Source of the DNA: Coriobacteriia bacterium
GTDB lineage: Bacteria; Actinomycetota; Coriobacteriia; Coriobacteriales; Eggerthellaceae
Assembly: GCA_030526775.1 (NCBI GenBank)
Contig: JAUNCA010000001.1
Span: 13,384 to 60,098, forward strand
Length of the DNA: 46,715 nucleotides
Reading direction: 5' to 3'
Below, one piece after another: positions 7,808-33,478 of this stretch. The notes under the pieces are model-generated. The model was not told the origin of the DNA. It did not search any database and worked only from the letters and a program-made list of their open reading frames with translations. The first letter of the stretch is position 1. Every line of letters begins with the position of its first letter. The translations under genes and the position numbers were made by a program.

Positions 7808-8110
7808 ATGAAAATCGAGGAAGCTGCTGACAGGGTCGGGAAAGACCGTATTCGTCAGGCTATGGAGTCCGACAACGCCGACGCCCTGAAGGACCTGTTT
7901 GACGAGGAAGGCATGTCGCTTACTGACGAGCAGCTCGACAGCATCACTGGTGGCATCTTTACGCCGCATGAGGCGAAGATTGCGATGCGTAAGCTGAAGC
8001 AGTCTAACGGCTCCGTTCTCGCCGGTGGATCCGCGTATTTCGATCCGTACGACCCGAATAGTCCCAACTGGACCGGGCCCCCCGGTACCGATACGACCGC
8101 GACTGACTGA
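7808..8110 (+). CDS. Nif11-like / double-glycine leader peptide (candidate bacteriocin, RiPP or pheromone precursor)
   Basis: 100 aa. GGGAGGccatc precedes the ATG. The leader ends ...NADALKDLFDEEGMSLTDEQLDSITGG (aa 49), matching the LSxxELxxIxGG cleavage motif. The 51-aa tail is Pro/Asp/Thr-rich and has a second AGG. Confidence 0.65.
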   Translation: MKIEEAADRVGKDRIRQAMESDNADALKDLFDEEGMSLTDEQLDSITGGIFTPHEAKIAMRKLKQSNGSVLAGGSAYFDPYDPNSPNWTGPPGTDTTATD

Positions 8111-8212
8111 GGCGCGTAGCCCGTCTGTCTCCATGCATAAGCCAATCGCCGTATCGCGTGACCCGAGCTGCCACGTGCCCGGTTATGCCGCGCCGGCAGT
8201 TCAGGTGCTGAT

Positions 8213-9082
8213 ATGCCCATGAACATTTGCGCGTCTGCCGACCATCGACTCCTAACGGAAAGCGCCCTTGCGCAATTGCGTCACGACGAGGGCTTGGCTT
8301 CGCTTGTGCGCGCGATGCGCGCAGAAGATCGCTCCGTGGCCGAGCAGGTGCAACGCCTCGGGGTTTCAAGTGTGCACATTGCTTGCCAGCGCAGCATGAA
8401 CGCACTGTTAGAGAGCGCGTGCGCGGAATCCCCGGCAACAACGTTGGACCCCGTGGAGTTTGCGCAGGCCATCTACAAGTTACCCCGCACGCCGCGCACC
8501 GCACCCATCCGTAGAATAGTTCGCGAGATTGCGCGCGTCTATGCGCGGGCGAGCACAAAGGGTCTGCCTATCCCGAAGCGCCCCGACGACTTTCATGCCT
8601 TGTGGGAATGCGCCATGGAGGGTGAGCCGCGATGGAGCGAAAAAGACTTTACGCCCAAGTTCCGCGCTTCCGCGGCACGGATATTAAAAGGGCAGTCGTT
8701 AGAAACCGTGTTGCAGGTGTGCGTGGATCCCGCCGATTACGAAACGGAGCTTGCGCGCCTGCTGGCGTTTCTCCAGGATGAAAGCCTCGAACTGGAAGTA
8801 CGTGCCGCTTGTGGATACGCGCTATTCGAATGGATTCACCCCTTCGTGGATGGGAATGGCCACGTGGGGAGGATGCTCGCGCTCTCGCTTCTGCAGGACT
8901 CCTATTCGCTTCCCACGATGGTGTGCTTCTCTTCGGCACTTGTGTGGGGAAAGCTGGGAACCTCCTGTCTATTCGCCCCGCTGCGCAGCGGCGACGGGAC
9001 GCTTGTCGATTTCTGCCGCGGTACGCTCGAGCAGCTGCATACCGAGCAGGCGTTGGCAATGGAAATCGTTGCGGAGGCCTAA
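8213..9082 (+). CDS. Fic/DOC-family protein with a variant active-site motif
   Basis: HPFVDGNGHVGR at about aa 210, versus the canonical HxFx(D/E)GNGRxxR (first Arg replaced by His). 289 aa. Confidence 0.75.
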   Translation: MPMNICASADHRLLTESALAQLRHDEGLASLVRAMRAEDRSVAEQVQRLGVSSVHIACQRSMNALLESACAESPATTLDPVEFAQAIYKLPRTPRTAPIRRIVREIARVYARASTKGLPIPKRPDDFHALWECAMEGEPRWSEKDFTPKFRASAARILKGQSLETVLQVCVDPADYETELARLLAFLQDESLELEVRAACGYALFEWIHPFVDGNGHVGRMLALSLLQDSYSLPTMVCFSSALVWGKLGTSCLFAPLRSGDGTLVDFCRGTLEQLHTEQALAMEIVAEA

Positions 9083-9135
9083 TGCGGGAGAGCGTTTCCG
9101 CCCTGCGCAGGCAACAGATTTGACCTCTGAAGCGG

Positions 9136-9174
9136 AAAAGCGGCCTGAGAGCGTGTTCACCTCCGGCCGCTTTT
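9136..9174. terminator. bidirectional intrinsic terminator between convergent genes
   Basis: AAAAGCGGCCtGAG - loop - CTCcGGCCGCTTTT. An A-run precedes and a T-run follows. It lies between the Fic stop (9082) and the small minus-strand ORF stop (9205). Confidence 0.65.
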
Positions 9175-9204
9175 GTGTCCCTGTGCTATGAGGGCTCGAA
9201 ACTC

Positions 9205-9327
9205 TTACTTATGGCGTCCCCACTCCGCATTCAGGAAGGCGCGAATGCCTGCGATGCCAGCGCAGACAAGGCCCAGGGCGATGAGCACCGACGAGTCGAT
9301 GACGAGGACGGGTTCTTTCTTTGCCAT
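9205..9327 (-). CDS. 40-aa single-pass membrane peptide (not in the ORF track)
   Basis: MAKKEPVLVIDSSVLIALGLVCAGIAGIRAFLNAEWGRHK. GAAGGAGATCACC precedes the ATG. It starts 27 nt downstream of the SRPBCC stop, on the same strand. Confidence 0.55.
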   Translation of the reverse strand: MAKKEPVLVIDSSVLIALGLVCAGIAGIRAFLNAEWGRHK

Positions 9328-9354
9328 GGTGATCTCCTTCTTGGTGATGTTGGA

Positions 9355-10068
9355 TTAGACGTCGATGAACTTCTTGCCCTCGGCAACGGCCTTGATGACG
9401 TCGGCCATGCGTGTGGACATAACACCGGAGGACCAGCCCCAGATTATGCCGACGACGATTGCCATCTGGATCTGGTTTTCGACTTCCACGTACACGGTGT
9501 TGCGCTGCACCATGCGGGTGCGCTTGCCGTCATCGAGCGGCTCCAGGAAGAAGCCCCAGGTCCAGCCGTATTCCTTGCAGCCATGAGGAAGCCAGGCGAC
9601 GGCGCCCTGCTGGGTGGGCGGGTTGCCCGTGTCGGAGCAGCCGACGATGTACTTGCCGGGCTCATGCAGCTTGACCTCGTGGCCTACGCCCTGGTCGCCG
9701 TAGAACACCCAGTCGCCAACCTTCGTGTCCTGCCAGCGTTCCTGTGCCGGATAAGTGTTGTAGATGCGGAAGGAGGCCAGGTGCTCGAAGTTCCAGAAGC
9801 TGTAGAAGCCGGCCTTGTTCTGGCCAATCTGGTTGATGAGCGGCCACACCTTCTCGGGCGGCGCGTCGATCTCGGTGACCATCTGCGAGACCATCACCTG
9901 GTCATCTGGATAGGGCAGCAAATCGTCGCCCGGATACGCGCCCCTCGGGGGCGTGTCCTCGGGAGCCACCTTGTACTTCTTGCTGAATTGGTTCAGCCCG
10001 AGAAGCACGGCCGCCGGAGCGGCGATGCCTACAGCCGCGAGCTGCAGTCCGGAAAACTTGAATTTCAC
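9355..10068 (-). CDS. SRPBCC (START/polyketide-cyclase-like) family protein with an N-terminal membrane anchor
   Basis: GTG start after GAAGGAG. N-terminal hydrophobic segment LQLAAVGIAAPAAVLLGL. Paralogous to 15469-16506 (shared xYPGD(D/E)L..., W.(F/Y)FL(E/I)PL...(R/T)R motifs). Confidence 0.65.
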   Translation of the reverse strand: MKFKFSGLQLAAVGIAAPAAVLLGLNQFSKKYKVAPEDTPPRGAYPGDDLLPYPDDQVMVSQMVTEIDAPPEKVWPLINQIGQNKAGFYSFWNFEHLASFRIYNTYPAQERWQDTKVGDWVFYGDQGVGHEVKLHEPGKYIVGCSDTGNPPTQQGAVAWLPHGCKEYGWTWGFFLEPLDDGKRTRMVQRNTVYVEVENQIQMAIVVGIIWGWSSGVMSTRMADVIKAVAEGKKFIDV

Positions 10069-10421
10069 GATGCACTCCTTCTCTCTAGCCAAAACGATAT
10101 ATCAACAGTGCATGTATAGTATAGGATGCTGAAACGCATATAATCCGAGGTCAGGCTATGTATGGAGAGCGCCAATAGATAGGACCTGGATTAATAGAGC
10201 GTCTGCCTTCTTTTCTGCGCAGGCGCGTACAGTAGGCGCTGGCGAAAGCCGATGGATAAGGTGGATGCGCTTTATGGGCAACACCTTCATTGTCGGCAGG
10301 TTCCCGAACCGCATCTGGGCAGACCGTCGGTAGCTGCGAGCCGTGCAGGCTGGCGGTTGGTTTCTGCTATCATCACACGGCGATTACGAACGCGTGAAAC
10401 AAGCGATTGGGGTAACGGAAT

Positions 10422-12143
10422 ATGTCGTGGTGGCAACACGAAAAAGCGAGGCAGTACCTACGATCCGCGATGGTCGAACACGGCAAGCAGGCAGCTGAGC
10501 ATCTTGAAAAGGGCGTGCAGGCGGCAGCTGCGCAACGCGAACAGGGCTTGAAACAGGCGGCTTTGTATCGCGAGCGCGGCATAAAGCAAGCGGCCCTGTA
10601 TGGCGAACAGGGCAGGCAAGCTGCGGCTGCTCATCTTGAGCGAGGTGTGAAGCAGGCGGTAGCCGTAAACCGCGCGCTAAGGCTGAAGAAGCTCACGTTG
10701 CTCCACTCCAACGACATGCACGGCGACTTCCTTGCCGACGAGGTTGACGACAAGCTGGTCGGCGGCGTTTCGATGCTGTCCGGGTACATTGAGAAAACCC
10801 GCCGCGAAGAGAAAAACGTCGTGTACGCGGTTGCGGGCGACATGTTCCGCGGTTCGCTTATCGATTCGGAGTCCCACGGCTTGTCCACGATTCAGATTAT
10901 GAACATGCTGACGCCCGATGTGGCCACCATAGGCAACCACGAGGTGGATTACGGCGTAGCCCACATGCTGTTCCTCGAGAAATGCGCGGATTTCCCCATC
11001 GTCAGTGCAAACCTTCGCATCAAGACGAACAATGCGCGCCTGTTCGATCCGTTCCACATCGTCGAGGTTGGCGGCATGAAGATCCTCTTCATCGGCGTTG
11101 TCACCGAGGCCGTGATATCGCGCTGCAAGGACGATGGCATCGCTGGTTCGCTTGTGGTGGCAGAGGATGCCCTAAAGGAAATCGGGCGCATCTGCGACAC
11201 GTATAACGGGCTCGACATCGACCTGACGGTGCTGCTTACGCACATCGGCTTCGAGGAGGACAAGAAGCTTGCGGCGCAACTCGACCCGACGTGGGGCATC
11301 GACCTCATCATCGGCGGGCATTCGCACACGCTGCTCGACGAGCCCTGCGTGGTGAACGGTATTCCCATCGTGCAGGTAGGCGTTGGCACCGATTACGTCG
11401 GCCGCTTCGACATCATGGTGGACACGCTGTTCAACCGCATCGATTCCTTCACCTGGCAGACCGTGCCCATCGATAGCGAGCATTGCCCCGAGGACGAGGC
11501 GCTGAAGGAGTTCATCTTCAAATGCAAGAAGAGCACCGACGCAAAATACAACCAGGTTGTCACGCGTCTTGCTCGGCGACTGATGCATCCCGTACGCTGC
11601 CAAGAGACCGAGCTGGGGGACCTGTTCGCCGATATGCTGCGTGACGCGCTCGGTGTCGACTTGTTCCTGCTGGCGTCGGGCAGCATCCGCGGGCAGGAGC
11701 TGGGGCCGATTGTCACCAAGGGCGACCTTGCCGTATGCTTCCCGTACGACGGGACGGCACATGCCGTGTATATGACCGGCGCGCAGTTGAAGCACGCGCT
11801 GCTGCATGCGATGCGCGACGAGACGTTCGCGGGTGGCCATGCCGAGTTCTTCCAAGTGTCGAGTGGGCTTGAGCTGGAATACGACCAGTCTTCGCACTCG
11901 TTTACGCGCTTTGACTTCGATGGCGAACCTGTCGAGGACGACCAGGAGTTCACGGTGGGTATACAGCAGTACAGCCTCACCAACACCGAGTACATGTTCG
12001 ATATGGCGATTGATGAGCTGCGGGCCAACCGCCATGAACGCACGCTGGCTTCATCATGCGCGGGCATCCTCGAGGAAGTCCTGAACACCGGCGAATATCG
12101 CGATGTCGAAGGAATAGGCCGCCTGACCTTGAACTTGTGCTGA
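10422..12143 (+). CDS. 5'-nucleotidase / bifunctional metallophosphatase (UshA-like) with an N-terminal 11-mer repeat region
   Basis: LHSNDMHGD, GDMFRGS and GNHEVDYG metallophosphoesterase motifs plus a C-terminal 5'-nucleotidase-like domain. No signal peptide is evident. Confidence 0.85.
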   Translation: MSWWQHEKARQYLRSAMVEHGKQAAEHLEKGVQAAAAQREQGLKQAALYRERGIKQAALYGEQGRQAAAAHLERGVKQAVAVNRALRLKKLTLLHSNDMHGDFLADEVDDKLVGGVSMLSGYIEKTRREEKNVVYAVAGDMFRGSLIDSESHGLSTIQIMNMLTPDVATIGNHEVDYGVAHMLFLEKCADFPIVSANLRIKTNNARLFDPFHIVEVGGMKILFIGVVTEAVISRCKDDGIAGSLVVAEDALKEIGRICDTYNGLDIDLTVLLTHIGFEEDKKLAAQLDPTWGIDLIIGGHSHTLLDEPCVVNGIPIVQVGVGTDYVGRFDIMVDTLFNRIDSFTWQTVPIDSEHCPEDEALKEFIFKCKKSTDAKYNQVVTRLARRLMHPVRCQETELGDLFADMLRDALGVDLFLLASGSIRGQELGPIVTKGDLAVCFPYDGTAHAVYMTGAQLKHALLHAMRDETFAGGHAEFFQVSSGLELEYDQSSHSFTRFDFDGEPVEDDQEFTVGIQQYSLTNTEYMFDMAIDELRANRHERTLASSCAGILEEVLNTGEYRDVEGIGRLTLNLC

Positions 12144-12197
12144 GGCTGTTTGGGGCTTCAAGCTAAGTTTTGCCTGGCCAGAGGCTCCATCCTTCGG

Positions 12198-12455
12198 CTA
12201 TTCCCCCTGGCGCGGGTTGCGCAGAATAGCGGCGGCCAGGTCGTCGAGCGTTTGGACCTGCCACCACTCCTCGTCGGGAACGTGCGCTTCGAATTCGGCT
12301 TCGAGCCTGGTGAGCACCTGGATGAACCCGAGCGAATCGACGCCGCCCTCGACGATCATCGTCTCGTCGTCCTTCAGGTTCGGGTCGTAATCTTCAGGCA
12401 GGTCCTGCGCCATAATCTCGCGTGCGCGGGCCTTTACTTCTTCAGCAGTTGCCAT
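12198..12455 (-). CDS. acyl/peptidyl carrier protein
   Basis: 85 aa with the GGVDSLGFIQV phosphopantetheine-attachment motif. GGAGGAG precedes the ATG. TAATG overlap with the upstream ligase gene. Confidence 0.85.
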   Translation of the reverse strand: MATAEEVKARAREIMAQDLPEDYDPNLKDDETMIVEGGVDSLGFIQVLTRLEAEFEAHVPDEEWWQVQTLDDLAAAILRNPRQGE

Positions 12456-13825: not shown

Positions 13826-13840
13826 GGGACGTCCCCTTCG

Positions 13841-13985
13841 ATGAGTCAGAGAACGTATCTTCGACTCATTTTCGCGTGAGCGTTTCTTGTTCGGTTGCGT
13901 TTCCCGAAAATGAGTCGAAGATGCGTTCTCCGACTCATCGGTTGCGTTTCCTGAAAATGAGTCGGAGACGCGTTCTCTGACTCAT
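13841..13985. repeat. three tandem ATGAGTC...GACTCAT palindromes (two of them inside 47-bp direct repeats)
   Basis: Units at 13841-13869, 13910-13938 and 13957-13985. The 47-bp unit CGGTTGCGTTTCC(C/T)GAAAATGAGTCG(A/G)AGA(T/C)GCGTTCTC(C/T)GACTCAT occurs twice in tandem (13892-13938, 13939-13985). Confidence 0.85.
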
Positions 13986-14037
13986 TGCTCAGCGGGCTGA
14001 AAACGGGCCGGGGTATTTCCCCGGCCCGCACAATTCC

Positions 14038-15399
14038 TTACTTGAAGAAGCGCAGCACCAGTTCGCGGCTGTACTCGACGGTTTCGTCCATGTCGCCGAA
14101 GCTCATGATCTCGCCGGCATAGAACGTGTCGTACTTGCCCTGCATCGCCTCGACGTCGTCGTACCAACCGGCGGCGTAGTCTTCGGAGAAGACGTGCGGG
14201 AAGTAGTACCAATCGCGCTCCTGGATGACCTCCTTGGCCGGGTTGCCCATGGTCTCGAGGTCTTTCAGTACGGTCTGCTTGACGTCCTCGTACGGAAGCT
14301 CCTTCAGGTCGCGGTGCTTGCGCAGCGCGTAGGTGACGTACATCTGGTCGGGGCCGATGTCGGACCAGCGATGGTAGTACACCATCAGGTGGCCGAGGCG
14401 GCCGGGCACCATGTTCTCCATGATGTAGTAGGAGATGTCGGGCGCCTTGTCGGGCTCGGTGAGGAAACCGAGGACGTCATAGCGCTCGAAGTCGATCTTG
14501 TCGAAGTGGCTCTTCTCGTCTTCGCGGATGTCGGCATACTCGCCGAAGTACTGCAGCGGCGCGGTGACGATGAGCTTGTCGAACTCCTCGACCTCGCCGT
14601 TCACCGTGATGAAGACCTTGCCGTCCTTGCGCTCGATCTTCGTGATGTCGGAGTTCAGGCGTGCCGGGTGCTTGATCTTGTCGTTCAGGTGCTCCCAGAT
14701 GGACTGCGTGCCGTCCTTCCAGGTCCACAGATTCACCTTCACGAAGTTCATCGTGGTCTGGAAGTCCAGGTACTTCAGCACGTAGGCGGCCGGAATCTCA
14801 TCGAAATAGCCATAGCCGAACGAGGTGAAGGGGCCAATCCAGATGTCCTGCACGAGTTCGACGCCGTTCTTCTCGCAGAATTCCTTGAACGGAAGCGCGA
14901 GGTCCTTCAGGTTCTCGTTTTCGCCCGAGATGTACTCGCGCTCGGGGGATACTGCGTAGCCATTGTAGCGGCCCTGCGCCACGCCGCGGTGACCGTTGAT
15001 GTCGTAGCCCTTGTACTTGGTCTGCAGCAGCTCGCCGAACTTCTTCACCTGGCGCTTCATCTGTAGCAGGCGCGGTGCCTTCAGCGGGTGCTTCTTCGGG
15101 TTAAACGGGTCGATGACATTGCCGTTGAGGTCCTTGTAGTTGCGGTTCAGGCGCGGGCCATCGTGCGTGATGCCGCAGAAGTCCTCGACGTCCTTGATGG
15201 CGTAGTACGAGGGCACGCCCATGATGGCGCCCAGCTCGTAGCGGCGGCCGTTGTACTCGGGGGAATGGCACTTGCCGCCCACCCAGCCGTTGCGCTCGAA
15301 GATGGTGTAGTTCTCGTATCCAGCCTGCTCAAGGTACATGCCGGCGGAAAGACCGGCCGGGCCACCGCCGATAATCGCGATGCGTACGTCTTTGTCCAT
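14038..15399 (-). CDS. FAD-dependent oxidoreductase resembling polyenoic (linoleate) fatty-acid isomerase
   Basis: Rossmann IAIIGGGPAGLSAGMYLEQAGY. GGKCHSP, AAYVLKYLDF, WYYFPHV and FYAGEIMSFG match my recollection of the Cutibacterium acnes isomerase. This needs a real alignment. Confidence 0.65.
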   Translation of the reverse strand: MDKDVRIAIIGGGPAGLSAGMYLEQAGYENYTIFERNGWVGGKCHSPEYNGRRYELGAIMGVPSYYAIKDVEDFCGITHDGPRLNRNYKDLNGNVIDPFNPKKHPLKAPRLLQMKRQVKKFGELLQTKYKGYDINGHRGVAQGRYNGYAVSPEREYISGENENLKDLALPFKEFCEKNGVELVQDIWIGPFTSFGYGYFDEIPAAYVLKYLDFQTTMNFVKVNLWTWKDGTQSIWEHLNDKIKHPARLNSDITKIERKDGKVFITVNGEVEEFDKLIVTAPLQYFGEYADIREDEKSHFDKIDFERYDVLGFLTEPDKAPDISYYIMENMVPGRLGHLMVYYHRWSDIGPDQMYVTYALRKHRDLKELPYEDVKQTVLKDLETMGNPAKEVIQERDWYYFPHVFSEDYAAGWYDDVEAMQGKYDTFYAGEIMSFGDMDETVEYSRELVLRFFK

Positions 15400-15468
15400 A
15401 TGAGTTCCTTCCTATTGGCTGGCGAACAAGCGGGGTGACGCCCCCTTGTTCGCCCGGTGATTCTCGTG

Positions 15469-16506: not shown

Positions 16507-16650
16507 AGCTTACTCTTCCTTCCCGATTGTTGACTTGCCATATCCACACTTTGTTCACAAACAGGGTACTACCATTTCGCCAGGTTTTCACCCCACTTCC
16601 CCTGCAAGATTGGTGCGGATTCCCGCCCAGAAATGAAGGCGTTTCGAGCC

Positions 16651-16683
16651 ATGAGTCAATTACCCCAGGGGTAATTGACTCAT
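16651..16683. repeat. perfect 33-bp palindrome ATGAGTCAATTACCCC-A-GGGGTAATTGACTCAT
   Basis: 16-bp arms with a single central base, in the divergent intergenic region 16507-16865. Confidence 0.9.
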
Positions 16684-16782
16684 TACGGTTGGGGAAACAT
16701 GGCAAGGTAGAGCGGTAGCGTGACTCTCTTTCCGAAACGGCCGACGTTGCCGTCGATAAGCTTGTAGCTTACGCGTACGTCA

Positions 16783-16837
16783 TCCCATCCTGCATGAGTC
16801 AATTACCCCTGGGGTAAGTGACTCATGCAGGATGGGA
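16783..16837. repeat. 55-bp near-perfect palindrome containing the same ATGAGTCAATTACCCC core
   Basis: TCCCATCCTGCATGAGTCAATTACCCC-T-GGGGTAAgTGACTCATGCAGGATGGGA: 27-bp arms with one mismatch. It ends 16 nt before a TATAAT box. Confidence 0.9.
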
Positions 16838-16852
16838 CTCCTGCCGGGTGCA

Positions 16853-16858
16853 TATAAT
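16853..16858 (+). promoter_or_regulatory. candidate -10 box (TATAAT) giving a leaderless or near-leaderless transcript
   Basis: A perfect TATAAT 7 nt upstream of the ATG at 16866. No good -35 was seen. Confidence 0.3.
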
Positions 16859-16865
16859 GGGTGAC

Positions 16866-18236
16866 ATGAAACTGCACAGGACGACAAATGCGATTATGCA
16901 AGGTGTAACGGGGTTGGTGTACCTCGCTGGGTTACCGTTTGCCCTGGCGAGCGGCGTGCTGCCCCGGACGTGGGGGCGCATGCGGAAAGCCCCGCGAACC
17001 GATGAGGATTGGATCGTGGTGCTGGGGTGCGGCTATGTCATCCCCGACATGTTGAACGCGCGTGTGGACGCGGCGGTGGAAACATGGCGAACCAAGCCCG
17101 ATTGCAAGCTCATCTTAAGCGGTGCCGAAACCGAATTCTCCGACGAGCCCGCCTATATGGCCGCCCGGTGCGTGAGCGCGGGCGTACCCGAGCAGCAACT
17201 GCTGCGCGACGGACATGGCTATACCACCAAGAAGACGGTGGAAAACGTCGCGCGTGCCGGCGTGAAGCGCGCGCTGTTCGTGTCGAGCGACTACCACATA
17301 CGACGTTGCGTCTACCAGGCGCGCCGTGCCGGCATCGACGCGGTGGGGCTGAAAGTTCCGCGGGTAAAGCATCGGCGGCGCTGGTTGTATTGGTTGCGCG
17401 AGGCGGCAGCCATGGCAAAGGCCGTGGTGTCGCGCTACGAACAGAGCCCGAACGCGTCCGCTCCACGGCTTGAGCTGCAGCCGGAAAGCGATGTTGAGTT
17501 CACCCAGCCGCTGTCGTTTCAGCCGTTTGGGCCGATCGACATGCTGGAGCCCTGGGCGTATGTGGGCCCGGAACCCGCTGCCGCCCCGGCGCCTGGCAAG
17601 CAGGTGCGCGTTTTGGTGCTCTACCCGCAGCTCACGGCAAACTACGGCGATCGCGGTAACGTGTTGCTGTTACAGCGGGAGCTTGAGGCCCGCGGATGTG
17701 ACGTACGCGTAGAGGAGCACGAGCTGGGCGCCGCTTTGCCCGACGCGCTCTACGATGCCTACCTTGTCGGAGGCGCCATGCCCCACGAACGGGAGCTTAT
17801 CGCCAACGACTTGCGTGCCGGGATGGCGCACCATCTGGCCCAGGCTATCGATGCCGGGAGCGTGTTGCTTGCGGTGGCGGGAGGGCTTGCGGCCCTTGGC
17901 GATGCCGGCGTGCTTCCCGTTCGAACCGAACCGGGCGATATGGAACCCGCGCATGCGTATGCGAAGCTGCTCGTGCCTGGCGGGGAGGGCGAGCTGCTTG
18001 CGGGGTATCAAATTCACGCCGAGCGCTATTACCTGGACAACCCCCGGAACGCGCTTGCGCGCACATCGGCGGGGTATGGCAACAACGGCGGAGACGGTAC
18101 CGAGGGCGTGTGCATCAACAACGCCTATGGCACCACGCTGCACGGACCCGTGCTCATGAGGAGCCGCTGGCTGCTGGAACGCTTGGCCGACGACATCCTG
18201 AAGCGGCGCGGCGAATCGGGGGTGGACAATGCTTAG
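16866..18236 (+). CDS. DUF218 (SanA/YdcF-like) domain fused to a GatD-like (CobQ-type) glutamine amidotransferase domain that lacks the catalytic Cys
   Basis: N-terminal half: TM helix, then IVVLGCG...LILSGAE...FVSSDYHIRR (DUF218-like). C-terminal half: VLYPQLTANYGDRGNVLLLQRELEARG, GYGNNGGDGTEGV and YGTTLHGPVL align to S. aureus GatD from memory, but the ICGGYQ nucleophile position reads AVAGGL. The start (16857 or 16866) is uncertain; the tracked GTG at 16818 lies inside the palindrome. Confidence 0.7.
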   Translation: MKLHRTTNAIMQGVTGLVYLAGLPFALASGVLPRTWGRMRKAPRTDEDWIVVLGCGYVIPDMLNARVDAAVETWRTKPDCKLILSGAETEFSDEPAYMAARCVSAGVPEQQLLRDGHGYTTKKTVENVARAGVKRALFVSSDYHIRRCVYQARRAGIDAVGLKVPRVKHRRRWLYWLREAAAMAKAVVSRYEQSPNASAPRLELQPESDVEFTQPLSFQPFGPIDMLEPWAYVGPEPAAAPAPGKQVRVLVLYPQLTANYGDRGNVLLLQRELEARGCDVRVEEHELGAALPDALYDAYLVGGAMPHERELIANDLRAGMAHHLAQAIDAGSVLLAVAGGLAALGDAGVLPVRTEPGDMEPAHAYAKLLVPGGEGELLAGYQIHAERYYLDNPRNALARTSAGYGNNGGDGTEGVCINNAYGTTLHGPVLMRSRWLLERLADDILKRRGESGVDNA

Positions 18237-19572
18237 CGTGCGGGATATGGCGGGCGTCGCCGCCGGAAAGCTGGCGTACAAACTCGCCCGAAGGCGGGGG
18301 AGTTCAGGCTCGGTCATGCCGGGTCATGTGGCGCAAAAGATTTCCCCGCACCTGCTGGAAACGCTTGCGCAGGACGTGGAGGTCTACCTCGTGACGGGCA
18401 CGAACGGCAAGGGCTCGACCATCGCCTTCCTAAGCGTTGCGGACAACCTGGGGCAGGAGCGCTGCCTCTGCAACGTTCTGCGTTCGAACATGCTCAACGG
18501 CATGGTCACGTCGTTCGTCATGGAGTCGGGCGCGTTCGAGAAGTCGCCGAAGAAGATCGCGTTTCTGGAATGCGAGAGCAGCCTGCCCATCGTGCTGCGA
18601 AAGGTAAAGCCCGCGGGCATTCTGGTGAACAACCTGTTCCTCGACCAGGCCGATCGGTACCGGGGCGTCGAGCAGCTCATGGGCTTGCTGCGCGATTCCA
18701 TCCAGACGGTTCCCGATGCCGTCCTGTTCCTGAACGCTGACGACCCCCGCGTCGTTTCCCTGGCCGAGGGCCTCCCGAACGAGCGGCACTGGTTTGGCTC
18801 GGATGTCGCGCTTTCCGGATGCTCCGAATACGACGGAATGAGCTGCCCCCGCTGCGGCACGGTGCTCGAGTATGGCCTGCACATGCTTGGCCACCTGGGG
18901 CATTGGCGCTGTCCCACCTGTGGATTCGCCCGTCCCGAGCCCGAAAGCCGCATCGCCGCCTTCCGGTACGTAAGCTATCTGGAATGCGATGTGGCTTCCC
19001 CAGCGGGCTCGCGCACGTATCGGGTGGCATATGGCCAGTCTGCGGTGCTGCACAATGTGCTGGCCGCCCACGTCCTCTGGCGTGCGGTGGGAGGCGACTC
19101 GGACGAGCTTGCGATGGGAATCGTGGCGCACAGCCTGAAGGAAGCCCGGTGACACACCACGGTTGTGCGCGGCTGCACCGTTCATCGCGAGATGGTGAAA
19201 AACGCCATTGGTGCGAACGTCGCCATCGACCGCTTCGTGGATTCGGATATCCAGGCAACGTTGTTGCTTGGGCTCGGAAGGAAAGTAGTGGACTCGAGCG
19301 ATCCGTCCTGGATCTGGAATGTCGAGTTCGAGCGCCTTGCCGCCTGTGAGCAGCGCATCCCGCGTATCTACGTGCTCGGAACTGCTAGCAATGCGCTTAT
19401 AGCGCGTCTCGTATGCGCTGGTATTCCCCGCGGTAAAATCGTTCCCCTCGAGCAGCCCAATGAGGTGCGCGCTGTTTGCGAGCAGGAACGTGAACTGTAT
19501 AGCTTCTGCTCGGGGAGCGTTACATCTGCGGTCGCTCGGGTCGTTGCTCGCATGCGCGAAGAGGAGAGCTAA
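18229..19572 (+). pseudogene. MurT-like Mur-ligase-family protein interrupted by an in-frame TGA (19150-19152)
   Basis: VTGTNGKGST P-loop; Cys4 ribbon CPRCG...CPTCG; after the TGA the same frame continues with the DUF1727-like part (VKNAIGAN...DPSWIWNVEFE). 8-nt overlap with the upstream GatD-like gene. Confidence 0.75.
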
Positions 19573-19591
19573 GTCCACAGCGCACTAAAGC

Positions 19592-19623
19592 ACGGTGCCC
19601 GCCCCGAATGGGGCGGGCACCGT
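19592..19623. terminator. 14-bp perfect GC hairpin shared by convergent genes
   Basis: ACGGTGCCCGCCCC-GAAT-GGGGCGGGCACCGT, between the MurT-like stop (19572) and the minus-strand peptide stop (19652). Flanking U-tracts are weak. Confidence 0.6.
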
Positions 19624-19651
19624 CGATAATGGCTGGCTGGTGACTGGATTG

Positions 19652-19816
19652 CTAGTCCTTGCCTTCCGCGTGCCAGTAGCCCTTTCCGTCTTGGTAGTAG
19701 TAGCCGCCCGCGACTTGCTCGAGAGATTCGTCGTCGAGAGCCTTAACTCCTTCGAGGTTCTCGAGGGGCAGATTGCCGTCCGCTGCGTCTTTCAGGGCGT
19801 CCAGAGCTTCCTTGGT
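19652..19816 (-). CDS. double-glycine leader peptide, core YYYQDGKGYWHAEGKD; no canonical start codon in frame
   Basis: The frame reads TKEALDALKDAADGNLPLENLEGVKALDDESLEQVAGG|YYYQDGKGYWHAEGKD*. AAAGGAAAGGAACCA lies upstream, but the sequence reads ATAGACC where ATGACC is expected, placing a TAG (19817-19819) directly 5' of the frame. Below the track's size cutoff. Confidence 0.5.
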   Translation of the reverse strand, partial: TKEALDALKDAADGNLPLENLEGVKALDDESLEQVAGGYYYQDGKGYWHAEGKD

Positions 19817-19961
19817 CTATTGGTTCCTTTCCTTTGTGTAACCCTACGATAAAGGCCTCTGCCTGCATAGATGCGAAAGGCGTTTGGCTCTTTGTCGATT
19901 GTTCGCCAGCCATCGAAAACCATCCGCAACATTTTTGCCAAAGTGGGTGCAGGTGCCCGAA

Positions 19962-19996
19962 ATGAGATGCCTGCCCTCAGGGCAAGGGCGTCTCAT
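19962..19996. repeat. 35-bp palindromic element ATGAGATGCC...GGCGTCTCAT
   Basis: ATGAGATGCCTGCCC-TCAG-GGCAAGGGCGTCTCAT, with imperfect arms. It has the same ATGAG...CTCAT termini as the other palindromes and lies upstream of the ABC substrate-binding gene. Confidence 0.6.
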
Positions 19997-20089
19997 TCTC
20001 CGCGCATGCGCCGGTTTTGGAGTATGCTTATCCGTGCAGGTTGGAGGCAAACGACCTGCAACGACAACGAATTCAGGAGGTTAGTAGAC

Positions 20090-20974
20090 ATGCGCGACAA
20101 GAAATGGAAGCTTTTGGGCATGGTATGCGCGAGTGTTGCCCTGATTGCGGCGCTGGCGATGGTTGGGTGCTCGGGAAACAATGCATCCAGCGATAGCGCT
20201 GCCGGCGATGCGGCGGCCGAGGCGGTTGCCGACCTCACCGTCACGCCCGGCAAGCTCACGATTGCCACGGGCAACCCGGCGTACCCGCCGTACGTGATGA
20301 ACGATGCTCCGGAGTCGGGCGAGGGCTTCGAGGCCGCAATCGCCTATGCGGTTGCCGAGAAGATGGGCTTTGCTCCCGAGGACGTGGTGTGGGTTCGCAC
20401 TGGTTTTGACGAGGCCATCACCCCGGGCACCAAGGACTGGGATATGAATATCCAGCAGTTTGGCGTCACCGAAGACCGCCAGAAGGCCGTTGACTTCAGC
20501 AGCCCGTACTTCAAGCCCACGCAGGCCGTCATCGTCGATGCTGCCGAAGGCCACGACAAGTACGCGAAGGCCACCAGCTGCGCCGAGCTCGCCGATGCGG
20601 TTCTTGGCGCCGAGTCTGGCTCCACGTCCTATACCTGGGGTATGGAGAAGATCAACAAGAACATCCAGGTGTTCAATTCCAACGCGGACGCGGTGAATGC
20701 GCTGAACGCGCATCAGATTGACGGCATCATCGTCGACACCCCGACGGGCGTGTACATGGCCGACCCCGAGATGGAAGAGCTTGCCTCTGCCGCTCTCATC
20801 GGTCAGATTCCCGACTCCGAGGCCGACCCGCTGGCCTTCCTCCTTCCGAAGGATTCCAAGCTTACCCCTGCCGTCACGGCTGCCGTTGACGAGCTGGAGG
20901 CCGAGGGTGCTTTGAAGGAAATCGCCGACAAGTGGATGGCCGAATACACCATCGACGTGCCGGTTCTGAAGTAG
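20090..20974 (+). CDS. amino-acid ABC transporter substrate-binding lipoprotein
   Basis: AGGAGG precedes the ATG at 20090. Signal plus lipobox (LIAALAMVGCSG). Family-3 SBP-like sequence. The tracked ORF starts upstream at 19871. Confidence 0.85.
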   Translation: MRDKKWKLLGMVCASVALIAALAMVGCSGNNASSDSAAGDAAAEAVADLTVTPGKLTIATGNPAYPPYVMNDAPESGEGFEAAIAYAVAEKMGFAPEDVVWVRTGFDEAITPGTKDWDMNIQQFGVTEDRQKAVDFSSPYFKPTQAVIVDAAEGHDKYAKATSCAELADAVLGAESGSTSYTWGMEKINKNIQVFNSNADAVNALNAHQIDGIIVDTPTGVYMADPEMEELASAALIGQIPDSEADPLAFLLPKDSKLTPAVTAAVDELEAEGALKEIADKWMAEYTIDVPVLK

Positions 20975-21110
20975 CCGACAGCTTCTGCACGACCTTGTGC
21001 GCCCGAGGGGGATGTTCCTCCTCGGGCGCAATTAGTTGTTGCCTCCCTTCGTTTATACTGTGTTCGCTGGGGATATCCCCGTTCAGCTGCATTCGATTAG
21101 AGGTGGGAAG

Positions 21111-21971
21111 TTGAAGGAAAGCGAGCCCGTCTTCGAGGTGAGCTCCGTCGAGCAGGAGCGTCAGGCGTTTCGCGCCCGCCAAGGCAGGCGCTCGGTTCTC
21201 ATCAGCATAGCCAGCACATTTGTGTTGGCCGCGGCCATCGTGCTCACACTTCACTTCGCGCCCGGCTGGCCACGTGTCCAGCAGACCTTCTTTAGCCCGG
21301 AGTACTTCGTGCAGTCGTTCCCGTACGTGTTGGATGGCCTCTGGCTGAACGTGCGCGTGCTTATCTATTCGCTTATCGGGACGGCGATTTTCGGCACGCT
21401 TCTGGCGGTCGTCCGTATCAGCAAGTCGCCCGTGCTATTCCCCTTGCGGATTTTGGCGCAGGCATATACGACCATCATGCGCGGTATCCCGATGCTCGTC
21501 GTGCTGTACATCATCGGTTTCGGCATTCCGGGTCTCGAGATTTTCGGGCGCATCCCCATTGCGGTCCTCGGCACCATCGCCGTGACGATGTCGTATTCGG
21601 CCTACATCGCCGAGGTCCTGCGTGCGGGTTTCCAGGACGTAAGCCCCCAGCAGCGCGCGTCGGCCCGTTCGCTTGGCCTTACCAGCGGGCAGACCGTGCG
21701 GCTCATCATCATTCCGCAGGCGCTGCGCAAGATCGCGCCGGCCTTGATGAACGACTTCATCGCCATGCAGAAAGACGTCGGCCTCATCTCGACGCTTGGC
21801 GCCATCGACGCGGTGCGTGCTGCGCAAGTGCAGGTGGCACTTACGTTCAACTTCACGCCCTACATCGTGGCGAGCATCCTGTTCATCCTCATGAGCGTTC
21901 CGTTCATCATCCTGAACGACTGGTATACCGCGAAGCTGCGCGAGCGCGAGCAATCGGGAGGCATGGTGTGA
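21111..21971 (+). CDS. amino-acid ABC transporter permease
   Basis: HisM/GlnP-like membrane protein with an EAA-type loop (SARSLGLTSGQTVRLIIIPQALRKIAP). TTG start after GAGGTGGGAAG is my choice; the start is uncertain (tracked ORF from 21036). Confidence 0.8.
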   Translation: MKESEPVFEVSSVEQERQAFRARQGRRSVLISIASTFVLAAAIVLTLHFAPGWPRVQQTFFSPEYFVQSFPYVLDGLWLNVRVLIYSLIGTAIFGTLLAVVRISKSPVLFPLRILAQAYTTIMRGIPMLVVLYIIGFGIPGLEIFGRIPIAVLGTIAVTMSYSAYIAEVLRAGFQDVSPQQRASARSLGLTSGQTVRLIIIPQALRKIAPALMNDFIAMQKDVGLISTLGAIDAVRAAQVQVALTFNFTPYIVASILFILMSVPFIILNDWYTAKLREREQSGGMV

Positions 21972-22723
21972 TGGAACAGCAGGCAAACATCGAGCCCGTA
22001 TTGCGCATCGATAACGTGGTGAAGCGGTTTGGCACGAACACGGTGCTCGACCATATTTCGTTTGACGTGCATAAACACGAGACCGTCGCGCTCCTGGGCG
22101 CCTCGGGGTCGGGTAAATCCACGCTTATGAAGTGCGTAAACCTGCTCGAGCGAGTAAGCGACGGGCAGATTTGGCTTGGCGACCTCGACATAACCGACCC
22201 GCGCGTGAACTCCAACGAGGTTCGTGCGCGCATTGGCGTGGTGTTCCAGCATTTCAACCTGTTTTCGCATCTTTCGGTGCTGAACAACGTGACGCTTGCA
22301 GCGCGCAAGGTGTTCAAGTGGGACAAGCATCGCGCCGAAGATAGGGCCATGGATTTGCTGAAGCGCATCGGCATGGACGGGAAGGCCAAGGAATACCCCG
22401 ACCGGCTGTCTGGTGGCCAGCAACAACGCGTGGCCATCGTGCGTGCGCTGATGATGAATCCCGAGTTGCTCCTGCTTGACGAGATTACATCTGCGCTTGA
22501 CCCGCTGCTCGTCGGCGAGGTGCTCGAGATGGTTGAGGAGCTGAAAGGCCAGGGGGCGACAATCCTGATGGCGACCCACGAGATGCATTTTGCGCGCAGC
22601 GCTGCCGACCGCATCGTGCTTTTGCGTGACGGTAAAATCGCCGAGAATGGCACGCCCGAAGAGGTCATGGACAATTCCGCCGACCCCGAGACCCGTGCGT
22701 TTTTCAAAGCCTTCCGCGCATAA
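21968..22723 (+). CDS. amino-acid ABC transporter ATP-binding protein
   Basis: Walker A GASGSGKST, signature [15 protein letters not shown], Walker B LLLLDE. GTGA overlap with the permease gene. Confidence 0.9.
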   Translation: MMEQQANIEPVLRIDNVVKRFGTNTVLDHISFDVHKHETVALLGASGSGKSTLMKCVNLLERVSDGQIWLGDLDITDPRVNSNEVRARIGVVFQHFNLFSHLSVLNNVTLAARKVFKWDKHRAEDRAMDLLKRIGMDGKAKEYPDRLSGGQQQRVAIVRALMMNPELLLLDEITSALDPLLVGEVLEMVEELKGQGATILMATHEMHFARSAADRIVLLRDGKIAENGTPEEVMDNSADPETRAFFKAFRA

Positions 22724-22759
22724 CCCGGGCAGAGTATAGCCGGCTCCTCGGCTGGACCC

Positions 22760-23012
22760 AAAAACCACGGTTGTGTGGAGCGATGCAAACTTTCCGCCAG
22801 TTTCAGCAGAAAAAACCACGGTTGTGTGGAGCGATGTAAGAGGGCGTTCGCGTATCGCGTGGGGTTCGAGTTTGCAGGTAATCAACGACCAGGCTTTATG
22901 TTGCCCGTGAGCTTGCGGAATCGGCTTGCCGCTCTGCATCACTCAACATACCCGTGGTTTTTCGACCTGGGCGCGCAAATTTTTTACATCGCTCCACACA
23001 ACCGTGGTTTTT
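22760..23012. repeat. cluster of four 26-bp repeats (2 direct + 2 inverted) AAAAACCACGGTTGTGTGGAGCGATG
   Basis: Identical direct copies at 22760-22785 and 22811-22836. Inverted copies at 22937-22962 (4 mismatches) and 22987-23012 (perfect). The cluster lies between convergent genes. Confidence 0.9.
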
Positions 23013-23103
23013 GATTCGGGCGCTCCACTCGGTGTCATCTTAGGCAAAGGGCAGAAGGCGCGTATTCGAGGGATTCGCCGCACCACGTGCGCAGCCATCT
23101 TAC

Positions 23104-23135
23104 GATGATGAAAAACACCCGCGGTAAATCATCAT
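23104..23135. repeat. palindromic element GATGATGAAAAACACCCGCGGTAAATCATCAT
   Basis: ATGATGA/TCATCAT arms around a CCGCGG centre. 31 of 32 positions are identical to 41848-41879. Confidence 0.85.
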
Positions 23136-23144
23136 GCGGGGGCG

Positions 23145-24257
23145 TTAGGTTAGCGACTTCAGGAGTGTGGTTACGACCTGGTTGGTTATCTCGTACGTGC
23201 CTGGCGCTTTGCTTTCGCGGGGGCCGGCGATGTTTAGGGTGAGTTCCCGGCCAAGGCCTTCGAGCCAGGTGCGTACAGCCCCGACCTCTTCGATACCGCG
23301 GATGACGAGGCAGGGTCGGCGCATCGCTTCGGCAAAGCGCACGGTCATTTGCGTTCCGCTGCAGGGCTCGAGCCCGGAGGGCGCCACGACCAGGGTGGCA
23401 TGTGCATCCCGGACATTCAGGGCGGTGCGCTCCACGTAGCTATCGCTCGGGCATTCTCGCAGCTCGGGGTACACGGCAAGCAACCCGGGCGCTTCGGGCA
23501 TGTCCTCGGCCAAACCACCCCTCGGCACCCAGCCGCATACCGGAATGCCCAGTTCACGAGCGGCATCGAGCGCTGCGCGGTCGGCTCCGGTCTGTCCGCC
23601 AGAACGAATGCGGGCAATCCTTCGCGTGTTCGCCACAATCGTGTCTGCTTCGTCTTGCTGGGCCGAGACGGAGGCGTCATCGGTGGGGTCGGCCTTTTGC
23701 AAGGTCTCCCACTCCTCGCGGGTAATCCAGTTAACATCTTCGGTAATGTAGTCGCCCACCGCTTGGCGCGGCCGGTTGCGGATGATGCGCTGATGCTTCA
23801 GCCCGAGCTTTTCCTGGACGCGGCGGTTTTGGTCGTGGCCGGCTATATGGCCCGCCCAAATTGCGGCAAGCCCGAGGTCGCTGAATGCGTGGTGCATAAC
23901 CGCGCGCACGGCTTCGGGCATAAGGCCTTGGCCCCATAGGGGCTTGCCCAGCCAGTAGGTCAGCTCGGCCTGATCGTCGCCGATGGCAAGGTCCGAGCGT
24001 ATTCCCACCTTAAGGCTGACAGAGCCGGTAGGGCGATCGGGGTCTTCCGCATCGCGTATGGTTACGGCATATGTTTCGGGCACCATCAGGTCTTTTTCGA
24101 GCGCTTCGCGGCTCTCTTGAACGCTTGCGTGGGGAAGCCAGCCTGCGGCAGGCCCCACGTCGGGGTCGCGGGCGTATTCGAACAGGGCTTCGGCGTCCGA
24201 TATGCGCCAGGGACGCAGGACGAGGCGTTTGGTTTCAAGCGTGACAGGCCAGGACAT
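23145..24257 (-). CDS. GNAT N-acetyltransferase (RimJ/RimL-like) fused to a YpsA/'molybdenum-carrier'-type SLOG domain
   Basis: N-terminal: TKRLVLRPWRISDAEALFEYARDP...GQGLMPEAVRAV (GNAT). C-terminal: IRSGGQTGADRAALDAARELGIPVCGWVPRG...ERTALNVRDAHATLV (PF12694-like). AAAGGAG precedes the ATG at 24257; the tracked ORF extends to 24668. Confidence 0.7.
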   Translation of the reverse strand: MSWPVTLETKRLVLRPWRISDAEALFEYARDPDVGPAAGWLPHASVQESREALEKDLMVPETYAVTIRDAEDPDRPTGSVSLKVGIRSDLAIGDDQAELTYWLGKPLWGQGLMPEAVRAVMHHAFSDLGLAAIWAGHIAGHDQNRRVQEKLGLKHQRIIRNRPRQAVGDYITEDVNWITREEWETLQKADPTDDASVSAQQDEADTIVANTRRIARIRSGGQTGADRAALDAARELGIPVCGWVPRGGLAEDMPEAPGLLAVYPELRECPSDSYVERTALNVRDAHATLVVAPSGLEPCSGTQMTVRFAEAMRRPCLVIRGIEEVGAVRTWLEGLGRELTLNIAGPRESKAPGTYEITNQVVTTLLKSLT

Positions 24258-24446
24258 GGGAGCTCCTTTCCACGCGACAACCCCCGTCCTTGTATTGGGT
24301 ATATTGTACGCGCGAACCCTTCTATGCCGCGTGTCGAAGACACGGGCCGTTTTCCGAAATGTGGGATATTCGTCGGATAGAACAGGAGTATGGTGCGTAT
24401 AAAGGGGTACAAATCTAGATTCCAATGGTATGAGGGGAGGCAGTGC

Positions 24447-24689
24447 GTGGAGGAGCGAGAGCTCGATAAGACGCTGGAACAGCTGTTTCAGCAAGATCTT
24501 TCGGCGGGAACCGAAGAATTCCGTGACGAGCTGCTTGCCCGCTGCCTTGCAGTGCTGGATGCCGAGAATGGCGTCGGCGAAATCGATGACGGCCTTCTTG
24601 GCATGCTCACCGCGGCGGGCGATGTGTATAGCGCCCAAGCCGAGGCAGACAGTTCGGTGAAACTCCAAGGTCGGGGTCCGCGGGCATAA
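24447..24689 (+). CDS. 80-aa precursor-like peptide with a GG-type leader motif ending Ala-Ala
   Basis: GAGGGGAGGcagtgc precedes the GTG. ...GVGEIDDGLLGMLTAA|GDVYSAQAEADSSVKLQGRGPRA aligns position by position with LDDESLEQVAGG and LTDEQLDSITGG of the other two peptides. It has its own terminator. Confidence 0.5.
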   Translation: MEERELDKTLEQLFQQDLSAGTEEFRDELLARCLAVLDAENGVGEIDDGLLGMLTAAGDVYSAQAEADSSVKLQGRGPRA

Positions 24690-30594: not shown

Positions 30595-30616
30595 AAGCGG
30601 GCAGGAGGAGTTGAAG

Positions 30617-33406: not shown

Positions 33407-33478
33407 AAATTTCCATACAGCAAAAGGGGAATGGATGGCTGCTGTGTGGGGAACGAAATGGCGAGAAAGGAAGACCCA

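Follow-up and report, generated by a model that had tools for sequence, protein, structure and literature searches.

According to Haft et al. 2010 (PMC2887384), NHLM-type export systems combine a trio of transporter genes with dispersed precursors of the Nif11 and NHLP types, including in Eggerthella lenta, and the exporter family was itself defined via its association with precursors of RiPPs, peptides that the ribosome synthesizes and that are modified post-translationally (PMC2887384). Unlinked double-glycine precursors that share an NHLM exporter have been known since 2010. LahT, a protease-exporter of Lachnospiraceae bacterium C6A11 (Bobeica et al. 2019, PMC6363468), is part of a lanthipeptide cluster, and LahT150 cleaves seven LahA peptides, ProcA peptides, NHLP-type AzoA peptides and others (PMC6363468). 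It needs hydrophobic residues at leader positions −4, −7 and −12 and is tolerant at −3, −5 and −8, with −1 and −2 outside its tests; the documented leader ends are Gly-Gly, Gly-Ala and Gly-Ser (PMC6363468). Here we analyse a stretch of 46,715 nucleotides (nt) from a Coriobacteriia bacterium of the Eggerthellaceae, hereafter the window, in which three small open reading frames, ORF1, ORF2 and ORF3, carry leaders of double-glycine type. As the first-pass annotation of this DNA proposed, the window holds a single exporter with a C39 peptidase: of two adjacent ATP-binding cassette (ABC) transporters, ABC1 is the only one that bears this domain, and ABC2 is peptidase-less.

The window probably encodes an NHLM-type export system in which ORF3 is the dedicated substrate, ORF1 is an unlinked, co-regulated precursor, and ORF2 belongs to a third family that is defective here. 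The exporter would be built from a short HlyD-like accessory protein, the C39-peptidase ABC transporter and its peptidase-less ABC partner, all apparently in one operon with ORF3 as its first gene, an extracytoplasmic function (ECF) sigma factor upstream of the exporter, and a STAS/PP2C-RsbW partner-switching pair downstream. The conserved leader of ORF3, with three predicted helices, would present a C39 recognition helix (L−12, L−7, L−4) and end in Ala-Ala. The exporter presumably cleaves after Ala-Ala or Gly-Gly, with export through ABC1/ABC2, and ORF3 would thereby release a short, acidic, Gly/Pro-rich and probably unmodified peptide outside the cell. ORF1 appears to couple a divergent Nif11-like leader and a canonical Gly-Gly site to the same ECF-like promoter as ORF3, and because it shares that promoter and has that site it is most likely co-expressed and exported by the same machinery. 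ORF2 would be tied to the system by the export motif only and stands outside the promoter set. That one exporter serves all three peptides is plausible.

Compared with the NHLM systems described so far, the locus has the same pair of ABC proteins, one with and one without a C39 peptidase, a leader with an L−12/L−7/V−4 cleavage helix ahead of a hypervariable core, and precursors that are numerous and may be unlinked. It differs in that the HlyD protein is cut to about 168 amino acids (aa), of which only the N-terminus and transmembrane (TM) segment match the model; in that the operon-linked precursors end Ala-Ala-Ala before Gly and have an N-terminal leader domain of their own; in that an ECF sigma factor and STAS/PP2C-RsbW proteins are part of the operon and tailoring enzymes are not linked to it; and in that the three leaders, unlike the Nif11 and NHLP precursors, fall below both of the corresponding hidden Markov models (HMMs). 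The literature that we searched holds no description of an Ala-Ala leader family or of a sigma/STAS/PP2C coupling to an exporter. The new parts, as far as sequence comparison can tell, are therefore the Ala-Ala leader family, the reduced HlyD and the genetic link to an ECF sigma factor and to a partner-switching module.

The Ala-Ala family emerges from comparison of ORF3 with its relatives. With the C39 ABC protein as query, 80 loci were collected across GTDB genomes; the nearest (70–83% identity) are from Eggerthellaceae, Atopobiaceae and ‘Coriobacteriaceae’ metagenome-assembled genomes (MAGs) of rumen and ruminant gut, and the remoter ones are from Clostridia and a few diderm (Gram-negative-type) lineages. 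The window is therefore placed in a Coriobacteriia of rumen or gut. A tblastn search places 24 copies of ORF3 in 23 of the exporter loci, from different species, at 41–60% identity, where they sit within a module of sigma factor, short HlyD, ABC1, ABC2, STAS and PP2C/anti-sigma-kinase genes. Both parts of the ORF3 peptide are under constraint, with a ratio of nonsynonymous to synonymous differences (pN/pS) of 0.28 in the leader and 0.34 in the core. Searched as a profile against 1.84 billion representative proteins, ORF3 matches at least 224 clusters at E ≤ 1e-3, 145 of them at E ≤ 1e-10. Lengths among the 150 best matches listed range from 58 to 139 aa, and 140 of these 150 best cluster representatives keep the pattern L-x4-L-xx-L-[AS]-A-A/G (the slash marks the predicted cleavage site). 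The site itself reads AAA/G in 114 and SAA/G in 18, so that Ala-Ala followed by Gly accounts for 132 of the 140. Two clostridial loci carry 66-aa peptides ending ...ISAA/GD and ...VSAA/GT beside a sigma factor and an exporter. The current NCBIfam and Pfam releases contain no model of the family, searches against Pfam, NCBIfam and PDB returned noise only (for example cytochrome b562 and TPR designs), and the one member with a source name is called ‘hypothetical protein’.

The leader register of the family, L(−12)xxxE(−8)L(−7)xxL(−4), with Asp as the alternative at −8, fits the ComA/LahT recognition consensus only when cleavage falls after Ala-Ala, as the first-pass annotation assumed. The predicted cores downstream are 9–54 aa long (median 17) and acidic. 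Gly, Asp, Pro and Ser are abundant in them, while Lys makes up 2% and Arg 4%; 16 of the 140 contain Cys, and a recurrent [FL]GDN motif suggests selection on the tail itself.

A different function for ORF3, as an intracellular anti-sigma-like regulator of the adjacent ECF sigma factor with a variable tail of no importance, is quite unlikely in our judgement; the leader-like helix would then be coincidental, or the exporter would remove or inactivate the regulator by the logic of FlgM secretion. The sigma gene adjoins the ORF3 homologue in about 18 of the 23 loci, and the pair stays joined when it has shifted across to the opposite side of these ABC genes. ORF3 is also the first gene behind a probably autoregulated promoter, and its conservation is focused on residues 1–57, including an invariant DLSxGTExFRDxLLxRCL block that export does not need and that resembles, by eye only, the initial ‘L..yldgeLs......HL..C’ of zinc-binding anti-sigma domains. 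An AlphaFold model gives helices at residues 3–14, 23–36 and 48–57 and a disordered tail, in keeping with an unimportant core, but it is of low confidence (predicted local distance difference test score 63, predicted template modelling score 0.28) and is not a helical bundle. Even at E ≤ 10, no anti-sigma family of Pfam, NCBIfam or PDB matches, and several loci have the sigma factor without an ORF3-like gene upstream. The most invariant feature of the 140 representatives is the L-x4-L-xx-L-[AS]AA/G motif, which persists in the clostridial versions with a different N-terminus, and the [FL]GDN motif again argues for a tail that matters.

The exporter to which this leader would be presented is well preserved. 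ABC1 matches PCAT1 (4ry2) and ComA over its full length, with the alignment to PCAT1 spanning residues 11–715 (E 1e-90), and its Pfam Peptidase_C39 match has an E value of 8e-36. The C39 domain is 75% identical to that of LahT150 (PDB 6mpz), and Gln13, Cys19, His93 and Asp109 correspond to Gln21, Cys27, His101 and Asp117 of LahT, so the catalytic residues are intact. As with LahT and LahA1–9, one protease-exporter would act on several precursors with differing cores. All three leaders satisfy the LahT rules for −4, −7 and −12, with the Ala-Ala of ORF3 at P2–P1 lying outside the positions tested with LahT150. Unlike the peptides of the window, the LahA peptides have leaders of the Nif11 type and form a cluster with a lanthipeptide synthetase; the precursors of the window are dispersed or linked to the operon, and a synthetase is absent. 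PCAT1, which serves the peptide CtA in Clostridium thermocellum, has the same dual protease-exporter architecture as ABC1. PCAT1 is a homodimer, whereas the second, peptidase-less ABC gene here suggests a heterodimer; ABC2 aligns to TIGR03797 over nearly its full length (28–685 of 686) and scores 5 bits under the cutoff.

The short HlyD protein consists of an N-terminal segment with one TM helix and an external part of about 110 aa. It scores 44.8 bits against TIGR03794 (cutoff 156.2), matching only model positions 1–69 of 421, and thus does not qualify as a full HlyD. A gene of this kind precedes ABC1 in all Gram-positive loci (within the range L005–L077), and the diderm loci leave space for a full-length gene; its presence in every Gram-positive locus points to a lineage-typical reduction and not to a pseudogene. 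The genes of the exporter operon are separated by minimal gaps and recur in the same order in many species.

In its general layout the operon resembles ComC/ComAB and BlpC/BlpAB, in which a small unmodified peptide with a leader of double-glycine type is encoded beside a C39 exporter and regulators, the core varies among close relatives, and the precursor gene is apparently autoregulated. It departs from them in its regulators, which are an ECF sigma factor, STAS proteins and a HAMP-PP2C-RsbW fusion and not a histidine kinase and response regulator (HisKA and response-regulator domains are absent from the genes scanned, 24.4–40.7 kb), and in its leader, which at 57 aa is far longer and is conserved; the signalling role would likewise be an assignment by inference here.

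A promoter motif links ORF3 to ORF1. Upstream regions of ORF3 homologues are otherwise unalignable, and all contain (G/A)GAC(G/A)xA ... GCGTATAA; among 21 such regions, 20 from related loci and one from the window, the spacing from GA[CT] to GTATAA is exactly 21 nt in 20. GAC-N17-CGT is the geometry of ECF-type promoters, and we infer that the motif is recognised by the adjacent ECF sigma factor. A position weight matrix (PWM) trained on the related loci, with the window excluded, gives its window maximum ahead of ORF3 and also finds a site ahead of ORF1; the two have GATAGAACAG-N9-GCG[AT]ATAA in common, and the ORF1 site is conserved in the orthologue contigs L002–L004. Elsewhere, scores of 16–24 are found upstream of Nif11-like double-glycine genes in L022 (two genes), L028, L059 and L068 (18.1); a score of 13.0 is given at one double-glycine gene of the related loci. 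Among about 17 double-glycine genes of Coriobacteriia, counting ORF1, 5–6 are preceded by matches, compared with 0.9% of random 400-nt windows. The PWM maximum in the shuffled window is 19.3, so lone weak matches have to be read together with their position. Around the three small ORFs, neither a simple terminator scan nor a sigma-70 scan was informative.

Public contigs and assemblies carry ORF1 as a gene call of 100 aa, and it has a ribosome-binding site, GGGAGG, 6 nt 5′ of its ATG. Its four homologues (74–91% identity) have a near-invariant leader and a core that is more variable, still alignable and invariant at its ...TDTTATD terminus. The leader profile aligns with those of Nif11-like peptides beside exporters in related loci over 32 columns (hhalign probability 96%, E 2e-9). 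Homology of the ORF1 core to the cores of other double-glycine peptides was considered and rejected, as only the leaders align. By profile comparison ORF1 is best classed as a remote Nif11-type precursor that is not a TIGR03798 member by the curated cutoff.

A Fic-domain gene lies directly 3′ of ORF1 in the window and in four of four related contigs. The simple scan detected no terminator between the two, and the promoter of ORF1 may drive both. The same arrangement raises the idea that ORF1 is a partner or inhibitor of the Fic enzyme and its Gly-Gly motif incidental. We consider this very improbable: the shared gene order carries little weight because the contigs are close relatives (the 74–91% identity noted above), the ORF1 leader is homologous to Nif11-like leaders that accompany exporters in other genomes, the promoter motif is that of ORF3, and the inhibitor motif (S/T)xxxE(G/N) is, by eye only, not in register in ORF1.

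How far the three leaders resemble one another can be stated from the motif statistics. Translated in all six frames, the window has two matches to the strict motif [LIVMF]x[DE][DE]x[LIVMF]xx[LIVMF]xGG, ORF1 and ORF2, against none in 100 Markov shuffles. A loose motif, the only one that ORF3 matches (it has Ala-Ala, and Gly at −9), occurs eight times against 2.5 expected, which is not significant alone; the remaining six matches fall within ordinary genes or their antisense. Motif statistics alone are thus convincing for ORF1 and ORF2 and not for ORF3, which we accept nonetheless because its homologues conserve its motif, and which with them becomes the best supported of the three.

C39 peptidase ABC transporters recognise hydrophobic residues at −4, −7 and −12, and these positions hold I, L and L in ORF1, V, L and L in ORF2, and L, L and I in ORF3. 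The first-pass annotation had described one pattern common to all three leaders, with hydrophobic residues at these positions and acidic ones at −9 and −10; the hydrophobic part stands for all three, and ORF3 breaks the acidic part with its Gly at −9. The leaders end TGG in ORF1 and AGG in ORF2, so that P2–P1 is Gly-Gly in both, and ORF3 has Ala-Ala followed by Gly. A DALKD sequence reported as common to ORF1 and ORF2 is present in both, out of register, 18 residues before GG in ORF1 and 26 in ORF2, and the two leader profiles align over the last ~15 residues only. From these alignments, the three leaders do not form one family; what they have in common is an export motif of 12–15 residues.

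ORF2 has relatives of 54–56 aa (P0005–P0007) that begin MTKEALDALKD... and conserve the core (Y/F)xYxDGKG(Y/W); the family entries P0008 and P0009 appear truncated or frameshifted. Its leader has only the last ~13 residues in common with Nif11-like leaders. In the window the frame has a TAG immediately upstream and no ATG, GTG or TTG within. DNA alignment explains this state: where the relatives read AATATGACC the window reads AATA-GACC, a 1-nt deletion at 19817–19820 that removes one T of the ORF2 ATG. The frame has a pN/pS of 0.12–0.19 against its relatives, and this purifying selection between lineages implies that the start codon was lost recently or through an assembly error. On the opposite strand, the gene convergent with ORF2 (18229–19572) is longer than 336 aa in relatives and is split here into 18229–19152 and 19165–19572, which may be a second frameshift or assembly error near the ORF2 deletion. 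A probable terminator 3′ of ORF2 was missed by the simple scan because its T-run is short.

An ECF-like motif is absent upstream of ORF2, where the best PWM score is −10.9. A ‘CAAACGC’ element was at one stage taken as a promoter shared by ORF1 and ORF2, and was dropped when the conserved GGAC...CGTATAA motif emerged. About 86 nt 5′ of ORF2 (minus strand, 19817–19920; columns 20–105 of alignment A4) are near-identical in four contigs, which differ by a single T/C, a G indel of 1 nt and the deletion in the start codon; the coding region has many synonymous changes. A scan of the whole window gave no Rfam match, so this conserved region is not a known RNA family. With neither ECF-like motif nor Rfam match, the stretch is possibly a regulatory element of another type. 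In L030, a 95-aa double-glycine peptide (14520–14800, minus strand) has a core that starts YLYHDEGD, similar to the YYYQDGKG of ORF2, followed by an extension of about 55 aa; the peptide is possibly related to the ORF2 family as a longer form, unless the likeness is due to chance.

All three small-ORF families are nevertheless real, conserved genes. The translations quoted in the first-pass annotation match the sequence exactly; of the three frames it placed, ORF1 and ORF3 are intact and ORF2 is without a start codon here; and homologous small ORFs, whose absence from related genomes it had named as part of a ground for refutation, are conserved for each. The window has a G+C content of about 60%, which produces long spurious ORFs on both strands, and a chance origin was considered for ORF1, ORF2 and ORF3; homologues, gene calls and substitution patterns rule it out. 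For ORF3 in particular, we rejected the idea that it is the shadow of a 507-aa minus-strand ORF: its Pfam domains run from residue 148 onward and a typical GNAT start, MSWPVTLETKRLVLRPW, is at Met138, so the gene starts there and does not overlap ORF3. Gene calls in close relatives agree, with 370 aa for the GNAT gene and 80 aa for ORF3.

The composition of the cores bears on what the peptides do. The first-pass annotation called them hydrophilic and Cys-free; this is true of all three in the window (net charge −0.2 to −1.2, grand average of hydropathy (GRAVY) −0.7 to −1.9) and fails in one ORF1 relative, with two Cys in its core. That the three give rise to modified RiPPs or to unmodified bacteriocins for competition, with tailoring and immunity genes distant or among the ABC/FtsX and CmpB-like neighbours, is in our view unlikely. 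The exporter family owes its definition to RiPP precursors, LahT belongs to a lanthipeptide cluster, and other double-glycine peptides of related loci have the Cys-rich cores typical of modified peptides; downstream of the operon, a recurrent set with a GAF-ABC ATPase, an FtsX/MacB-type permease and CmpB-like proteins could confer immunity or resistance, and in L048 a PWM match precedes a 453-aa ORF that looks radical-SAM-like by eye. Set against this, no modifying enzyme is conserved beside ORF1, ORF2 or ORF3 homologues, and the cores of the window as well as the Gly/Asp/Pro/Ser-rich cores of the ORF3 family, low in Lys and Arg, are unlike cationic amphipathic, membrane-active bacteriocins. 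Acidic, Gly/Pro-rich, Cys-poor cores and the lack of linked tailoring enzymes instead suggest peptides that are secreted without modification and act in signalling or regulation. Signalling rather than antimicrobial activity, which the first-pass annotation had suggested as one option, also fits the genomic context of the ORF3 family, and we keep it as a putative role.

Several observations weigh against a dedicated NHLM-type system with ORF3 and ORF1 as co-regulated substrates. Ala-Ala is outside the documented P2–P1 sites, and ORF3 could be a poor substrate or none. About half of the related exporter loci are without an ORF3 homologue or sigma factor within 10 kb, so the association is frequent and not obligatory. 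Read as −35/−10 hexamers, the promoter consensus GAC-N-TATAA with its 18-nt spacer is close to a housekeeping promoter, and the score of 14.5 ahead of ORF1 is within the range of window-wide shuffle maxima, so that its significance derives only from its location and conservation. Coding constraint on ORF1 is weak, with a pN/pS of 0.7–0.8 against a 75%-identical orthologue and few substitutions, and ORF2 as assembled offers no canonical start for translation. The leader HMMs that the first-pass annotation had named, TIGR03798 (Nif11, curated cutoff 32.3 bits) and TIGR03793 (NHLP, with similarity to the nitrile hydratase alpha subunit, 50.9 bits), are matched by none of the three ORFs at E ≤ 10, and TIGR03793 is not matched by any of 16 ORF3-family members either. 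TIGR03798 reaches at most 30.3 bits, below its cutoff, on the Coriobacteriia peptides of related loci; deltaproteobacterial and Vecturithrix peptides pass it with 37 and 66 bits. Other leader HMMs gave weak matches only, which we set aside (cyan_ocin_like, E 0.098, for ORF1; daptide, E 0.49, for ORF2). Finally, there may be other C39 exporters elsewhere in the genome; related MAGs frequently encode two or more such systems, located on other contigs.

Table 1. Features of the small-ORF loci and the exporter operon in the window (positions count from its first nucleotide).
Feature	Position	Strand	Description
ECF-like promoter of ORF1	7725–7754	+	AAGATAGAACAG-N9-GCGAATAAT; PWM score 14.5; 53 nt before ATG
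ORF1	7808–8110	+	100-aa precursor; leader aa 1–49 ending LTDEQLDSITGG; 51-aa hydrophilic core
Fic-domain gene	8213–9082	+	Motif HPFVDGNGHVGR; 102 nt 3′ of ORF1
PWM match	16829–16858	+	Score 18.1; ends 7 nt before a fusion of DUF218 and CobB/CobQ-type glutamine amidotransferase (GATase)
GC-rich hairpin, probable terminator	19594–19621	−	3′ of ORF2; read from sequence; conserved in relatives
ORF2	19652–19816	−	54 codons; Gly-Gly-leader peptide; core YYYQDGKGYWHAEGKD
GNAT acetyltransferase and circularly permuted YpsA (SLOG) fusion	23145–24257	−	370 aa; divergent from ORF3
ECF-like promoter of ORF3	24374–24403	+	GGATAGAACAG-N9-GCGTATAAA; PWM score 18.6, window maximum; 43 nt before GTG
ORF3	24447–24689	+	80-aa precursor, GTG start; leader aa 1–57 ending IDDGLLGMLTAA; predicted core GDVYSAQAEADSSVKLQGRGPRA
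ECF-type sigma factor	24872–25360	+	162 aa; Pfam Sigma70_r2, r4_2, Sigma70_ECF
Short HlyD-like accessory protein	25362–25868	+	168 aa, one TM; starts 1 nt past sigma stop
ABC1, C39 peptidase-permease-ATPase exporter	25917–28076	+	TIGR03796, full length, 949.5 bits (cutoff 853.3); C39 domain aa 8–137
ABC2, permease/ATPase without peptidase domain	28098–30287	+	TIGR03797, 704.5 bits (cutoff 709.4)
STAS anti-sigma-factor-antagonist	30292–30594	+	TIGR00377, 56.5 bits (cutoff 53.45); Pfam STAS; syntenic in many loci
Membrane sensor	30611–33406	+	931 aa; 6 TM, ~200-aa extracytoplasmic loop, 1 TM, HAMP, PP2C (SpoIIE), HATPase_c_2 (RsbW-like)
Second STAS-like protein	33431–33778	+	From ORF list; equivalent 110-aa STAS gene called in relative L091
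PWM match	39927–39956	+	Score 16.5; 35 nt before a CmpB-like membrane protein

The membrane sensor is described from Pfam matches, hydropathy and synteny, and its extracytoplasmic loop covers residues 264–464. Two further PWM matches in Table 1 lie ahead of genes outside the exporter operon. The 7-nt gap between the first of them and the start of the DUF218-GATase gene suggests a leaderless transcript, and this gene and the CmpB-like gene behind the second match are possible members of the same regulon. A match at 44384 lies inside a minus-strand, membrane-transporter-like ORF (44077–45315) and was discarded as a false positive. In L048, a match of score 17.0 (1424–1453, plus strand) is placed before the 453-aa ORF mentioned above, ~1.5 kb upstream of the ORF3 homologue of that locus; the N-terminal CPTMGCNF of this ORF underlies the radical-SAM-like reading, and the ORF may represent a tailoring enzyme in some lineages.

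The GNAT-cpYpsA gene is found at this position in the closest relatives only and probably has no connection with the peptide system. Downstream of the operon, 33822–40681 (plus strand) encodes, in addition to two CmpB-like proteins, an ABC ATPase whose N-terminus is a GAF domain and an FtsX/MacB-type permease of 1099 aa; L022, L026 and L055 also have this set close to the exporter, and it may serve in immunity or sensing.

Taking the exported-precursor reading one step further, we put forward as a tentative and rather doubtful proposal that ORF3-family proteins are pro-peptides of a so far undescribed Gram-positive cell-to-cell signalling circuit. The NHLM exporter would cut the ORF3 leader after Ala-Ala and free a short unmodified peptide, which the ~200-aa loop of the HAMP-PP2C-RsbW membrane protein would sense outside the cell; this protein, acting via the STAS partner-switching proteins, would then liberate the ECF sigma factor, and the sigma factor would drive the GGAC-N17-CGTATAA promoters of ORF3, its own operon and further exported peptides, ORF1 among them. 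As a variant of this scheme, the 57-aa leader of ORF3 might hold the sigma factor until the exporter engages the leader. If the exported-precursor reading holds, at least 224 clusters of unnamed small proteins would acquire a function, as peptides that rumen and gut Coriobacteriia and some Clostridia export; Ala-Ala would join the accepted cleavage sites of C39 transporters; and the export of peptides would be connected with an ECF sigma factor and with partner switching.

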